Shown: positions 1 to 5,201 of the stretch, piece after piece
How the letters are laid out: each line of letters opens with the position of its first letter
Position numbering within the stretch: the stretch's first letter is position 1
Sequence record: NZ_KM577619.1
DNA from: a plasmid
Length of the DNA stretch: 5,201 nucleotides
Reading direction: 5' to 3' (one strand)
Made by a program: the position numbers

Positions 1-3000
1 AATGATTGCACTGTATAAATAACCAGGTGTAGCATGTATGGAAAAGCACTTTATCAATGAAAAGTTTTCACGAGATCAATTTACGGGGAATAGAGTTAAA
101 AATATTGCCTTTTCAAATTGTGATTTTTCAGGGGTTGATTTAACTGATACTGAATTTGTTGATTGTAGTTTTTACGACAGGAATAGCTTGGAAGGGTGTG
201 ATTTTAATAGAGCCAAACTAAAAAACGCTAGCTTTAAAAGCTGCGATTTATCAATGAGTAATTTTAAAAACATTAGCGCCTTAGGTCTTGAAATTAGTGA
301 GTGTTTAGCTCAAGGAGCTGATTTTCGAGGGGCTAATTTTATGAATATGATAACTACAAGGTCATGGTTTTGTAGTGCTTATATAACCAAGACAAATCTT
401 AGTTACGCTAATTTTTCTAGAGTCATATTAGAAAAGTGCGAACTGTGGGAAAATCGCTGGAATGGCACTGTGATAACTGGCGCCGTGTTTCGTGGCTCCG
501 ATCTTTCTTGTGGGGAGTTTTCATCGTTTGATTGGTCTTTGGCTGATTTTACTGGTTGTGATTTAACGGGTGGGGCGCTTGGCGAGCTTGATGCAAGGCG
601 AATTAATTTAGATGGAGTGAAGTTGGATGGAGAGCAGGCGCTTCAGCTTGTTGAGAGTTTAGGTGTTATTGTTCACCGATAAAATCTAGGTAAAAAACGC
701 CTAATGCCCCAATGTGGTACAATCAAAACGGAGCGAAGCGACATCTTCATCTTGTCTTTGCTTTTCTCCATGATCAGTTATTGGGTCATGGTCTCTTAGC
801 TCGTTAATCTGGCTAAGTTTGGTTAGGTTGGGCTTCTTTCGACACTTCGCAATCCAAGAAATCCCTAGTCCGTTGATTGGTGCTCTTATCAGGTACGCAC
901 TGTAATCTTTCGATACCGCAGCGTGATTCGGAGGTAGAGCCGGAATTTCGTTTTCCGGTACGTTTTACTACCACAATTTGCCTGTTTATCCTTTCGGAGA
1001 CCGGGCTAAGTCCGAGTCAATCAAGTGGTGCATTTGGGTTAATGTCGTTGGCTGGTATTTAATGAGAACGTGACAAGCGCCTCTCACGTTGCTAAGATTG
1101 GATTGCGACGTCTAATCTGAGCAACGAATGCACAAGATTTAGAGTACCAGAGCCCTGTGATGCTGTCACGGGGCTTTGTTACATCTGGAGCTTGGTAAAC
1201 CTCATAAATTCAATTCGCAACGCTCGCCGCAAGGCGTGAACTTGTTTCACGTCGAGGAAGCGGAATTTCTCGAAAGCCTTATACTGTCTCCGTTCACACA
1301 TGATCGGAGGGTGTCTCTATGTCTCAATTATTTCGTTTGGCATCGCCAGAAGATTACGAATACATCGAAGAATTAAATTTATGGGAATTGTCATTTGATA
1401 AGCGACCGGTTCAAGGGGTTCGTTGTGAAGATCCGGTGATCGGGGCAGAAAAATATAATCAAGGGCGTGAAAAATTTAAGGCGTTAGCGTCACGGCATAA
1501 AAAACACTGGAAACCGAACGGATTGACCTTTTCGGAGTTGATCCGCTGGGCAATAGAATGCGGAACTCCAGAACAATGTCAGCTTGTTTTAGCGTTATAC
1601 CATTGCACAAACGATGATGATTATCAGGCGATGGGAATTCAGTTAAGCCGAAGTATTGATAATGCAAATGTCAGTCCGATCATCTTTTTCACAGGTAAAA
1701 ATCAACGGTTATTAGGTGATATTTCGATGCTAAAACAGCTCGAAGAAAAGGTGCGCTGACGTTAGGTTTACCTATTATTTTATGTATTATCCTATCTATT
1801 ATTCTATCTCTTATTTTATCTATTTCGTCTGTAATAGGTAGAATAATACATAGAATAAGATACAGAATAATAGATAGACACAAGATGACGTTGTGTTATT
1901 TCTTACCCATTAATCCACCTGTTATTCTACCTATTACTTTACCCGTTATTGCACCCAATTTAGGTATAACGGGCAGAATAACGGGTGAAATAATGGGTAG
2001 AATCATAGTTTTACTAACTTGCACCCCATGATACTTTCAGTATCAATGCCACTCATTTTCTGGACGAAAATGAATGACATAAGGCTCCGCCCTCTGGCTA
2101 TTTTCTTCGGCTGGACGCCTGCGAAAAAAACCATTCACCCAAGCCCGTCAAACTCACTGCGTTCGTCTGACCACCCCCTTTTTTCGCCCCTGTATTTGGT
2201 CGCTCAAAAATGTGGTGGTCAGACGCTTCGCTTGACGGGGGGCTTTGCCCCCAAAACGAAACACGTTCACTGGGGTTCACTTGCCATCGCTGGGGCGTGT
2301 CATTTCGTTTCGGCTCCCCCTGTTTTTCCCTTTCTTCGCTGGACGCTCATCAGGATAAAAACAAAAAGCCTACCGCCCTCGTTTTACTCGGTTGGTCAAA
2401 TCGCTTCTTGCCACAAAACAAGTTTGTGACTTTCAGCGATTTCGCATCGTTTTACTTGTCAGTTTGCACGATGTTAAAAACGCACTCAGAAGCCCGCAAA
2501 ACCGTTCTAAACTTTCAGCGTAGATTTGGGTGTTTTATAGGGTGATCGTGTCTTAAAATCGTTTCGAGGGGCTTTAATGGGGATGAACGGGAGGTTTTTG
2601 CTAACTAACTCGCCCGTTTAACATAAAAGGGATTAGAGTAACCCATTTTACCGTTTAAATCGCTCAGGCTTTTTCCATGTGAAATCTTTTGCGTGTCGTT
2701 CTAACTTTCTTTGTTTTTGTGCCTTATCTGCGATTCTTTGGCTCCAGATTTGTTTATATACCGTGGCTAGCAAGGTTTTCCGTTGGTCTTTATTTAACGG
2801 TTTACCGTTTTGCCTTTCATATTCATCAAAAGCCTGCCGCATAAACGTTTTTTCTTTTCGGGTTAAGTTTTTAATCTTTCTCATGGTGATTTTATATCCA
2901 AAACTCAAATTTTGAGCAAAAAAGTGCCTAATACCTCAATGTGGTACTAATCAAAACGGAGCGAAGCGACATCATCAATTTGTCTTTGCTTTTCTCCATG

Positions 3001-5201
3001 ATTAGTTATTGGGTCATGGTCTAATTGCTCCTCAAACGCTTCAGGATGGCAATGAGGGTGATTAGGGTAGCTTCATTATGATTTCATGTTGTCTCCTGAT
3101 GGCTCTGAGGCGCTCTCAGGGGCATTCTTAGATTGGTAGTTCGGAGGGGATGCTTGTGTCAGATTACTTATACCGATTTTGTGGGCTGTTACTGAATAAT
3201 CGGAGGAAATGCAGGCGGAATTTTATGGTGTTTTTTTATGAGGGGAGATCTGGCGTTATTGCAGGCAGAGTAAGGGAAATCAGACCTTAAATGAGCCTAA
3301 AAAGAGAGGAAACCCAATGGTATATAGGGGGGCTCTTCTATATAGGTGTGTATTTATTGACGTTGTTTTTGTTAATTCAGTTAACGCATTGATTTATAAC
3401 AAAAAGAGGCTGGCGTTTTCACGCCATTGATACGCATTTATATTAGAGTAATCAGGAGGTTGCCTGTGTAGTTCTTGATAGCTGATGGTGTTGTTCATTT
3501 AAGATCTCCTTTTCGGTGATCTTAACCTGTGTGGGATAGGGCTGAGAGAAATCTCTGTGAGTCTAATAAATTAAGGGGTGTTATGAAAAGATTGTTGCTG
3601 TTGGGTTTTCTGTGTTTTCCAGCTTTAGCTGGGGCTGCTAGTTGTGATGTGGCGAATGAATATAAATCTATCTGTCTGGCTGCTGAAAAAGGGGATGCTG
3701 GCGCTCAAACTCTATTGGGGATGATGTATTACTTCGGTGATGGTGCTAAACAAGATTATCATAATGCGTTTCAATGGTTTGAAAAGTCTGCTAAGCAAGG
3801 GAATGCTAATGCTCAGGAGTTGTTAGGAGTTATGTATTATAACGGTCAAGGGGTTAAGCAGGATTATCATAAATCGTTTCAATGGTGTGAAAAGTCTGCT
3901 AAGCAAGGGAATGCTAACGCTCAAGTGAGCTTGGGAGTGAAGTATGTTACAGGCATAGGTGTTAGGCAAAATTATTATTTAGCTAAAAAATGGTTTGGTA
4001 AGGCTTGTGATAAGGGTGAGCAGGATGGATGTGATATGTATAAAAAAATCAAGCAATTGGGTTATTAAGGGCAATAGCTGCCTAATGCCCCCTATGTGAT
4101 ACCAATAGCAGGGGAGCATAGCGACTACTTCATGTAGTTCGTTTTTTAGGTTAGGTTAAGAGGCTTTTGACCTAGCAATCCGAGCGCTCTTTGTAGTGTC
4201 CTGATTTAATCTTATCGGGCATCTGATATCGTACGATGAGACGGTGACAGAGCCTACTTGTCGTTGTAGGGGCGGTATCACGTAAACCCGTTTATCTTCC
4301 TTTGAGACCGGAGCGGAGTCCGTTAAATCAGGGTTGTGCATTTGTGTTATTGTCGTTGGCTGGTATTTAATGAGAACGTGACAAGCGCCTCTCACGTTGC
4401 TAAGATTGGATTGCTGAAGTCTAATCTTAACAACGAATGTACAAGATTTAGAGTATCAAAGCCCTGTGATTATGTCATGGGGCTTTGTTACATCTGGAGT
4501 CTGATAAATTGTTAAGTAATCAAGAAATGAGATGCGCGTAAGACCCATTATGTTAAACGGGCGAGTTTACACCTCAAAACCGCCCGTTAGACGCGCTCAG
4601 AACGTCTACAATCGATTTTAAGCACCCAACTCACCCCATAACACCCAAATCCATGCTGAAAGTTTAGAACGGTTTCTGTGCCTTTCTAGTGCATTTTTAA
4701 CAATGTTTTATTTCAGGTGAAATCATTAACGTAAGGCTTAAAACAATCCATATTTATAATTGTTATTTTTTACTTTTGATAAATTTATAAAACGGGGTTT
4801 CACTAACGTAAAAACCAGAGTGGCTGATTTCATCCATGATGCTAGACCAACTTTTACCTTGTTTTTTTAATTCCATAATCTCGTCATAGATGTGATCGAG
4901 GAGCTCATTTGTTGTCGCTTTAGGATGCTCGGTCATAAAACTTTTTATTTTTTCAATCATTCTACTGCCTTGATTTTTGGCTGATATTTAATTAACTCTG
5001 TCAATTATAGAGCACTAAATTAACGGAATCATGAAAAATTTCTTATTTTTTTAAAGTGATATAGCGTAATGAGATGAAAAAATAGAAAGGGTAGATAATG
5101 ATGGATGTTAAACGCCACACAAGAGACTTGTAGCGTTTAACATAAAAGGGATTGTATGAATCAATTTTAGCTAGAGTTTAAGGTTGTTCAAATTAATGTA
5201 C

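Follow-up and report, generated by a model that had tools for sequence, protein, structure and literature searches.

The 5,201-bp DNA stretch NZ_KM577619.1 (the window, always taken at its full length) is a circular plasmid that carries the quinolone resistance gene qnrD1 and three 28-bp sites resembling dif, in which an XerC arm and an XerD arm flank a short spacer. We consider it likely that these sites belong to a family of plasmid Xer (dif-like) sites of small Morganellaceae plasmids, and that the window represents a 2,683-bp qnrD1 plasmid with a pair of blocks recombined into its single TCCCTT site. In this family, the XerD arm (TTATGTTAAAC) is invariant and the spacer is of two main types, while the XerC arm varies but keeps the dif-consensus bases T3, C5 and T9A10A11. 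Comparison with related plasmids gives direct and very strong support for recombination at these sites, in the form of insertion of block pairs, replacement of single blocks and fusion of whole plasmids. In Proteus, Providencia and Morganella, quinolone resistance carried on plasmids is mainly due to qnrD.

The qnrD1 plasmid contains three dif-like sites

A megablast search against PLSDB identified the window as a whole plasmid, with two full-length matches: pSDQ8C180-2 of Proteus terrae (NZ_CP073358.1, 5,202 bp, 99.8% identity) and a plasmid of Serratia marcescens (NZ_LC543863.1, 5,204 bp), positions 1-5204 of which align with window positions 1-5201. PLSDB types both as Col3M and non-mobilizable. 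A smaller plasmid of 2,683 bp, which covers 58% of the window, accounts for more than 100 further PLSDB records; its hosts are Proteus, Providencia, Morganella and Moellerella. The three sites are located as follows:

2616..2643, minus strand: site A, with XerC arm GGTTACTCTAA (2633-2643), spacer TCCCTT (2627-2632) and XerD arm TTATGTTAAAC (2616-2626)
4531..4558, plus strand: site B, with XerC arm GATGCGCGTAA, spacer GACCCA and XerD arm TTATGTTAAAC
5135..5162, minus strand: site C, with XerC arm GATTCATACAA (5152-5162), spacer TCCCTT (5146-5151) and XerD arm TTATGTTAAAC (5135-5145)

All three sites show the 11-6-11 layout of 28 bp, and their orientation alternates (minus, plus, minus for A, B and C). 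The XerD arm matches that of Escherichia coli dif at 10 of 11 positions in each of them. Site B agrees with E. coli dif at 19 of the 22 arm positions (9 + 10), sites A and C at 16 (6 + 10). Sites A and C repeat each other directly at a distance of 2,519 bp and have the 20-mer CGTTTAACATAAAAGGGATT (repeat D7) in common. The XerD arm occurs exactly three times in the window if both strands are considered; 0.01 copies are expected and none of 200 shuffled sequences reached three, so that we reject a chance origin of the sites.

Most of this had been described in an earlier note, made from the sequence alone. Our site scan and the comparison with relatives bear out its claim of three dif-like sites in alternating orientation that bound module-like units. 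The same is true for the XerD arm (10/11) that A and C share with B, for their degenerate XerC arms (6/11 each) and for an identical 19-mer in the direct repeats A and C, which lies within the 20-mer. Its count of about 20 of 22 arm positions for site B was slightly too high, although the 11-6-11 layout was correctly assigned. The possibility of additional sites elsewhere on the replicon has to be dropped, since the window is the entire replicon and contains three sites in all. For the same reason, we reject the possibility that site B could be the single chromosomal dif, into which an integrative mobile element exploiting Xer (IMEX) had inserted: the window is a complete circular plasmid.

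The segments between the sites recur as blocks in other plasmids

If the window is cut at its three spacers, segments of 2,682, 1,915 and 604 bp are obtained, and each of these matches relatives from its first base to its last. Site A joins the XerD-side end of the qnrD unit to the C module, site B joins the C module to the D module, and site C joins the D module to the qnrD side of the backbone. The blocks, to which no strand applies, are:

2630..4544: C module, 1,915 bp (C1915), XerC arms inward, with a 78-aa open reading frame (ORF), an element remnant, the Sel1 gene and a diverged element copy
4545..5148: D module, 604 bp (D604), XerD arms inward, with a 65-aa ORF
5149..5201: qnrD unit, part 1, which runs on at 1-2629 over the circular junction (total 2,682 bp, direct sites at the ends)
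1..2629: qnrD unit, part 2, with qnrD1, a conserved element, ORF2, palindromes and an XerD-side block

For this comparison, every copy of TTATGTTAAAC was marked in ten related plasmids, which were then cut in the middle of the spacers, and the resulting pieces were compared. Another 20 contigs were added by exact-protein look-ups with the Sel1 protein and the 65-aa ORF, and inter-site segments were clustered at ≥90% identity and ≥95% mutual coverage. In the ten relatives, all copies of TTATGTTAAAC are part of dif-like sites with the spacer TCCCTT or GACCCA. The XerC arms vary among these sites, and the same arm is found wherever the same module end recurs. Up to four sites are present per plasmid, and their orientation alternates.

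The qnrD unit (5149-2629) is identical end to end to the 2,683-bp plasmid pRS12-11 at 99.96%, was found in 14 loci (cluster 2), and is embedded unaltered in pHBRJC9, pRS12-78, p3M-2B, pswupm2.1 and pRGF134. The earlier note had placed a qnr homologue in a module to the left of site A. The gene is indeed present and is qnrD1 itself, but its unit is bounded by direct and not by inverted sites, and hence corresponds to a "CD" unit rather than to a C module. D604 occurs in 19 loci (cluster 1); it shows 98.7-99.8% identity over positions 1-604 in pPM14-2 and pHBRJC9, and it is inverted in pW18-2-c, a 10-kb MOBQ/Rep plasmid of Moellerella whose replicon is a different one. C1915 is specific to the window's plasmid type, with 11 loci (cluster 3) that are ≥99.7% identical end to end. 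Three more blocks recur: a ParA-bearing C module of 1,164 bp, which lacks the conserved element (seven copies in six loci), D439 (five copies in four loci) and D511 (three loci).

The recurring blocks mostly show >98% identity and stand beside differing neighbors. C1915 is combined with D604 or D511, and the C1915+D604 pair is found in both qnrD and non-qnrD backbones; C1915 occurs in the non-qnrD backbones of loci L143 and L145, the former of which carries the 2.5-kb pair without qnrD. The ParA C module is joined to D439 (pRS12-78, pLC-693_3) or to D604 (L149-L151). Single blocks are also replaced with the rest unchanged, D604 for D511 and D439 for D604. Aligned junctions of the recurring blocks place the switch in homology always inside the 28-bp site, where one XerD side is joined to up to nine XerC arms with unrelated outer flanks. 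The XerD side of site A is joined to at least six other XerC arms and flanks in relatives. Among the aligned copies of D604, eight different XerC arms were counted at the GACCCA end of eight copies, and nine at the TCCCTT end.

The sizes add up as well: because 2,519 and 2,683 bp make 5,202 bp, the window looked like the common small plasmid with an insert at one site. The single site of the 2,683-bp plasmid is a hybrid of the XerC side of C and the XerD side of A. Removal of the 2.5-kb segment by recombination between A and C, as foreseen in the earlier note, would yield the 2,683-bp qnrD plasmid, i.e. the product that is present in more than 100 records. Relatives lacking individual modules, which the same note had suggested looking for, also exist, namely the 2,683-bp plasmid without the pair and backbones with other blocks.

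Two published proposals on larger qnrD plasmids can be compared with these junctions. Zhang et al. (2020; PMC7409132) noted direct repeats 2,683 bp apart and proposed, for p3M-2B, that homologous recombination between short direct repeats termed DR-C built such plasmids. The repeat called DR-C and the TCCCTT site upstream of qnrD are one and the same. The exact distance of 2,683 bp in p3M-2B, pRS12-78 and pMB18 (PMC7409132) agrees with this proposal, and in some fusions, such as swupm2 (see below), the partners do have ∼600 bp in common beside the site. In the window, however, the partners share just 20 bp, and the same 28-bp junction is found in dozens of otherwise unrelated contexts. Moreover, the breaks do not fall in the far longer shared block on the XerD side, and the XerC arm, which is not shared, is under a dif-like constraint (see below) that homologous recombination does not predict. 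We regard the DR-C proposal as very improbable, and homologous recombination is an unlikely origin of the window in particular, given that no more than 20 bp are common to A and C.

Guillard et al. (2014; PMC3913671) proposed that qnrD moves as a mobile insertion cassette (mic) and described the insert of pRS12-78 without a mechanism; the inserts would then be unrelated insertions. A 1,519-bp segment flanked by imperfect inverted repeats of 24 bp and by a CA duplication (PMC3913671) fits a cassette, and the segment common to p2007057 has about that extent. Against this, a transposase is absent and the insert junctions are 28-bp sites. The insert of pRS12-78 (1,603 bp) consists of exactly one C module and one D module between TCCCTT sites, and the same pair recurs in pLC-693_3; the segment shared with p2007057 holds the site and a probable replication region, and is more simply explained as a shared replicon. 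Transposition of a mic thus appears extremely improbable as the source of these inserts. Like this insert of pRS12-78, the additional 3.2 kb of p3M-2B is a block pair of the family described here. Neither paper mentions Xer, and the inversely oriented GACCCA site, the pattern in the XerC arms and the recurring blocks went unnoticed in both. The junctions misfit both published models, whereas a model of recombination at Xer sites fits them.

Fusion of whole plasmids can be followed in a pair of sister strains: swupm3 contains free plasmids of 2,683 and 2,259 bp, and swupm2 contains the two fused into one, with a single mismatch over 4,942 bp. Because of the ∼600 bp of shared flank, homologous recombination is possible in this case. 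A 13,976-bp contig (L003) contains a 6.7-kb composite in two copies, which consists of the ParA C module, D439, a 2,441-bp non-qnrD backbone and the 2,683-bp qnrD unit; four sites connect the two backbones and the module pair.

The XerC arm retains positions of the dif consensus

One genome per species was scanned for a TCCCTT- or GACCCA-like spacer followed by TTATGTTAAACG, which yielded 120 loci. These comprise members of the family and chance matches in unrelated taxa, the latter serving as internal control. Family membership was set by the XerD-side flank alone. In 38 distinct family sites, T3 is present in 37, C5 in 35, T9 in 33, A10 in 36 and A11 in all 38, and positions 1-2 are purines. 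The family arms match GGTGCGCATAA at 6.8 of 11 positions on average, in comparison to 3.1 of 11 for 87 chance matches, in which no column is conserved (0.17 bit or less). The positions conserved in the family coincide with the dif consensus. As the XerC arms and outer flanks are otherwise unrelated, this pattern reflects constraint and not common descent. Most family sites contain the motif TAA-spacer-TTAT; a fuller version, ATAA-spacer-TTAT, was reported to govern binding and cutting by XerC and XerD (PMC11705084). On these grounds, XerC and XerD are likely to be the recombinases acting at the sites.

The spacers of the 38 unique sites are TCCCTT (21), GACCCA (16) and GCATCA (1), and the exchanges deduced from the alignments join like spacer with like, with pW18-2-c as an exception (see below). 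Family hosts are Proteus, Providencia, Morganella, Moellerella and Xenorhabdus. Plasmids with a single site are known for both spacer classes, TCCCTT in Col3M plasmids and GACCCA in RNAI/ColE1 plasmids. The latter are represented by five small Morganellaceae plasmids (L024, L033, L069, L102 and L129) with ColE1 RNAI (RF00106, 59-67 bits) and one GACCCA site each, which carries the same XerD-side block. Because single-site plasmids exist in both classes, the two types of sites are probably native Xer resolution sites of two plasmid families, and the multi-site plasmids would be recombinants.

Family sites were also seen on chromosome-sized contigs (L122, L128, L113, L047, L058 and L039). A 169-kb contig of Moellerella wisconsensis ATCC 35017 (L122) contains four dif-like sites within 6 kb, including a 511-bp D module, and single family sites are present in P. 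mirabilis ATCC 29906, P. vulgaris and Providencia alcalifaciens. No canonical dif was found beside these sites within the 8 kb examined.

The single-site plasmids raise the question of whether the sites could be ordinary multimer-resolution sites of the cer type, the window being a heterodimer of two small replicons that fused once and the modules by-products rather than moving units. The 2,683-bp parent and several RNAI/ColE1 plasmids do carry one site each, the C module holds a copy of an element that is probably replicative, and the free plasmids of swupm3 and their exact fusion in the sister strain swupm2 illustrate such an event. But this element is missing from the D modules, which measure 439-631 bp, and from the ParA C module of 1,164 bp, and yet these blocks recur with varied partners; replacements of single blocks are also observed. 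The 6-bp spacer, the lack of an ArgR box and the conserved flank at the XerD side also speak against a cer-type site. We consider this explanation unlikely; it overlaps with the favored one, Xer-mediated insertion of a block pair, more than it excludes it.

Alternatively, the arm and the adjacent hairpin described in the next section could together be recognized by a site-specific recombinase that is not XerC/XerD, either encoded by the host or provided in trans. All XerD arms lie in inverted repeats and a conserved 155-bp block adjoins them, and neither feature is known from dif, cer or plasmid dif (pdif) sites. However, the plasmids encode no recombinase, as their ORFs except qnrD and Sel1 are without Pfam match. 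In addition, the 11-6-11 layout, the XerD arm with 10 of 11 matches to dif and the dif-consensus positions kept in the XerC arm all argue against a different enzyme, which makes this alternative quite unlikely.

A conserved block with a hairpin adjoins the XerD arm

Beside the XerD arms, the following features were identified:

2470..2615, plus strand: XerD-side block of site A, a conserved block of ∼155 bp, here 146 bp, with putative promoter and hairpin
4559..4702, minus strand: XerD-side block of site B, the inverted homologue of 2470-2615, with a hairpin at 4556-4588
5105..5143, no strand: near-perfect palindrome ATGTTAAACGCCACA...TGTAGCGTTTAACAT (repeat I16, z = –5.5)

The two blocks form the inverted repeats I1 (127 nt, 71%) and I7 (29 nt, 86%). 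In total, 27 variants of the ∼155-bp block were collected, and it is present in 164 PLSDB records. The hairpin at 2586-2618 takes the last bases of the XerD arm into its stem. This stem is preserved in 19-25 of 25 variants, and two compensatory changes were seen in it; the DNA folds reach z = –2.5 on the A side and z = –4.2 on the B side. Every XerD arm lies in an inverted repeat, with the palindrome at 5105-5143 in place of the hairpin block at site C. In this palindrome, which is kept in every copy of that D-module end in the aligned junctions, an additional XerD-arm end lies in inverted orientation 21 bp away from site C. At site B, the XerC arm (4531-4541, GCGCGT) can pair in the DNA fold with ACGCGC at 4590-4595, just past the hairpin. 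This extends the palindrome over the whole site B, and other XerC arms joined to the D module cannot pair in this way. In one copy of D604 (L149, ∼1756), the loop of the hairpin belongs to the other flank type (gggcgagttagttagcgaaaacc...) and the sequence downstream of it is the module's own, pointing to gene conversion or homologous exchange inside this block. A match to the COG2827 RNA at 4549-4629 was dismissed as chance, with E = 0.58 and absence in 12 relatives.

In cer and psi, accessory sequences lie beside the XerC arm, and cer has ∼180 bp of accessory sequence with an ArgR box there; in psi an ArcA site is present instead, and PepA sites belong to such accessory sequences as well. Near the family sites, ArgR boxes are not enriched (six matches versus 7.0 expected, none at a constant place). 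Together with the position of the conserved block on the XerD side, this argues against a cer-type arrangement.

The block at 2470-2615 contains a putative promoter pointing to the core site (TTTTATA at 2533-2539, TCTTAAAAT at 2551-2559), the –10 region of which is kept in nearly all variants. It is the putative qnrD promoter of Guillard et al. (PMC3913671). In the 2,683-bp form, this promoter would read through the site into qnrD, whereas in the window the 2.5-kb pair intervenes. An equivalent insert abolished resistance in pRS12-78 (PMC3913671), while qnrD expression was unchanged by the insert of p3M-2B (PMC7409132). By parting qnrD from its upstream promoter, insertion at the site may thus alter the phenotype at constant gene content. 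More speculatively, small Morganellaceae plasmids could carry a self-contained Xer module system of a kind distinct from both cer and the pdif sites of Acinetobacter. In it, block and hairpin would be an accessory and regulatory element that licenses XerD-first or FtsK-independent recombination and acts as a portable outward promoter, cargo such as qnrD being switched on or off when recombination connects it to this promoter or parts it from it; we put this forward tentatively and regard it as doubtful.

A model for block exchange and points against it

Based on these observations, we propose that the 2,519-bp pair of C1915 and D604 would have been inserted at the TCCCTT site of the 2,683-bp plasmid, which would create the hybrid sites A and C and leave B as internal site between the two blocks. 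Host XerC and XerD would bind cooperatively, anchored on the XerD arm, so that a strong XerD arm would offset a weak XerC arm, as it does at Acinetobacter sites (PMC11705084). Strand exchange would take place solely between sites with like spacers, and it may be activated by FtsK or by the conserved block on the XerD side. Intermolecular recombination of two TCCCTT sites could then lead to plasmid fusion or to insertion of a block pair, and recombination between the direct repeats A and C would delete the pair and restore the 2,683-bp plasmid. A single block would be swapped if plasmids fused at one spacer class and then resolved at the other, in line with the two-step fusion/resolution model of Balalovski and Grainge, which is discussed in PMC13141974 and PMC11705084.

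A number of observations weigh against this explanation. In their XerC arms, sites A and C agree with dif at no more than six of 11 positions, A being without C5 and C without T9, and we infer the enzymes from the likeness of the sites to dif. The ends that carry GACCCA elsewhere have GCATGT or GCATCA in pW18-2-c (L014, positions 2302 and 5844). In this plasmid, the module ends that are joined via GACCCA in pHBRJC9 stand apart, which does not fit a simple like-with-like exchange. The free 2,519-bp circle is not in PLSDB, and one group working on Acinetobacter saw only cointegration and no excision between plasmid sites (PMC11705084), so that excision between A and C may be rare. The accessory-like conserved block is found beside the XerD arm and not, as in cer and psi, beside the XerC arm, and the ArgR box is not enriched. 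Furthermore, the block common to the window and the 4,270-bp plasmid p2007057 has the site internal to it, whole-plasmid integrations break at non-site positions, and the other boundary of the qnrD cargo (691/692) is the edge of a conserved element and not an Xer site.

Such integrations of the entire 2,683-bp qnrD plasmid were observed in four contigs (L001, L002, L004 and L005), at four different non-Xer breakpoints with 6-10-bp overlaps. They are located in large plasmids with type IV secretion system, Tn3 and insertion sequences (IS), and in a 4.08-Mb chromosome beside rpmH-rnpA-yidC, and look like transposon- or IS-mediated cointegration.

Relation to known Xer-dependent systems

The closest parallel in organization is found in the dif modules of Acinetobacter (Blackwell and Hall 2017; Ambrose et al. 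2026, PMC13141974; Blanchais et al. 2025, PMC11705084), which have been described as natural to Rep_3/OrfX plasmids (PMC13141974). Both share 28-bp sites with 11-6-11 layout, a conserved XerD arm and a degenerate XerC arm, and an alternation of C and D blocks between inversely oriented sites. In both, a given block turns up in different plasmids and its junctions fall in the site. Recombining partners agree in their spacers, block pairs are acquired or deleted between direct sites, individual blocks are exchanged for others, and cointegrates arise. The cargo is small and accessory, including a Sel1-repeat gene. The hosts of the present sites are, in contrast, Morganellaceae (Enterobacterales), and the backbone is Col3M/ColE1-like without Rep_3. 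The Acinetobacter backbone is a C module, whereas the basic plasmid here has one site and a "CD" backbone with direct sites. Only two main spacer classes occur, and a 155-bp block with hairpin lies beside the XerD arm. Finally, dependence on XerC and XerD (binding, cleavage) was demonstrated for Acinetobacter sites only (PMC11705084), while for the sites described here recombination is known from sequence comparison.

The nearest enterobacterial precedent is provided by the cer-type Xer modules in ColE1-like qnrB19 plasmids (Tran et al. 2012, as cited in PMC10454011 and PMC6764390). These are small multicopy enterobacterial qnr plasmids as well, and in the oriT/Xer model for qnrB19 (PMC10454011, PMC6764390) a site for the host Xer proteins bounds the variable region and serves both resolution and interplasmid fusion. 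The spacer of 6 bp differs from the 8-bp central region of cer, but the core is within the 6-8-bp range of cer and psi. In contrast to cer and psi, there is no enrichment of ArgR boxes and the sequences beside the XerC arms are unrelated among contexts. Cer is present once per plasmid; one site was counted in the 2,683-bp parent and in each of the five RNAI plasmids, and three in the window. With IMEX (the phages CTX, TLC and VGJ, the gonococcal island and EludIMEX-1) the family would share the use of host XerC/XerD via a dif-like site by an element without a recombinase of its own; it differs in that the target is a plasmid site and not chromosomal dif, and in the lack of phage or island functions.

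Full-text searches returned no paper that ties qnrD or Col3M plasmids to Xer, dif or pdif, although Shao 2023 (pdifFinder), which is said to report pdif modules "across genera", may list such plasmids. The qnrD plasmids seem to be a further case of Xer-site-bounded plasmid modules and Xer cointegrates, in Col3M/ColE1-like plasmids of Morganellaceae. If this is true, dif-type module shuffling would not be peculiar to Acinetobacter Rep_3 plasmids but also occur in Enterobacterales on ColE1-like plasmids. Plasmids carrying qnrD were transformed into E. coli DH10B by Guillard et al. (PMC3913671). Transfer to E. coli with xerC, xerD, ftsK, pepA and argR mutants makes the activation of pdif-type sites testable, and the site model NNTNCNNNTAA, 6 nt, TTATGTTAAAC would let annotation pipelines flag such junctions.

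Host background and further features of the window

Besides the sites and blocks, the window contains the following genes and elements, the element and its copies being without strand:

38-682, plus strand: qnrD1, pentapeptide-repeat gene
692-1200: conserved non-coding element of ∼510 bp in the qnrD unit, probable replication region
1319-1759, plus strand: ORF2, 146 aa, in the qnrD unit
2648-2884, minus strand: 78-aa basic ORF in the C module
2919-3035: element remnant in the C module
3583-4068, plus strand: Sel1-repeat gene (Pfam) in the C module
4076-4508: diverged element copy in the C module
4763-4960, minus strand: 65-aa ORF in the D module

The pentapeptide gene at 38-682 is qnrD1, and among the ORFs of the window, Pfam matches are limited to the pentapeptide repeats of QnrD and to Sel1 (E = 4e–29). 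This agrees with the earlier note, which saw no transposase, integrase or attC: none of these, including a canonical attC, was found in the window. A rep gene is likewise absent from the window. The Vibrionaceae-like background assumed in that note did not hold, as the PLSDB matches place the plasmid in the Morganellaceae (Proteus, Providencia, Morganella). An origin from integron attC sites or a Vibrio superintegron was also rejected. GTTTAAC and GTTAAAC fit only one core each of RYYYAAC/GTTRRRY, the stem-loops of ∼35-45 bp are too short (57-141 bp in attC), IntI is absent and the window is a Proteeae plasmid. Conservation furthermore spans the arm, the spacer and two more nucleotides (19 bp), unlike in attC.

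The conserved non-coding element is probably the replication region. Its 5′ edge (CCTAATGCCCCAATGTGGTAC after an A-run; CCTAATGCCCC...) is razor-sharp in at least 27 upstream contexts, and the qnrD-specific stretch ends at 691. A decayed Xer site at 692 (CCTAATGCCCC...) was considered and rejected, as the XerD-like arm reaches just 6-8 of 11 matches and the boundary is more simply explained as the edge of the element, at which homologous recombination would have ended. The element contains a promoter-like site at 1070-1098 and a terminator-like hairpin at ∼1150-1180, from which a small RNA of ∼75 nt would be predicted. The Rfam scan of the window returned nothing significant and Rfam RNAI has no match in the Col3M plasmids; with no Rfam match, a group II intron or a known RNA was rejected as identity of the repeated element. 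In the qnrD-less backbone of L143, the cargo was probably replaced with the Xer site at one side and homology in the conserved element at the other.

The 65-aa ORF protein of D604 is listed in 230 blocks of the assembly collection and is unrelated to the basic ORFs of 53-61 aa in D439 and D511. The D modules accordingly encode no factor in common. The Sel1 protein shows <60% identity to any plasmid homologue outside its own plasmid type, and a tie to the sel1 modules of Acinetobacter was rejected on account of this distant similarity.

The 2,683-bp plasmid or its kin also appear as small contigs in assemblies labeled Acinetobacter idrijaensis, Massilia, Fulvimonas, Enterorhabdus and Shewanella (L021, L035, L045, L079, L098, L108 and L129) and under Brucella anthropi in PLSDB records, due either to contamination or to very broad spread. 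Just 3′ of ORF2, two long, imperfect palindromes (1766-1879 and 1904-2017) consist of 12-bp AT-rich repeats, for which Tandem Repeats Finder gave the consensus CTATTATTCTAT and related sequences over 1766-2017. Folded as single-stranded DNA, they reach z = –3.4 and –6.1, respectively, and they look like iterons or a centromere.

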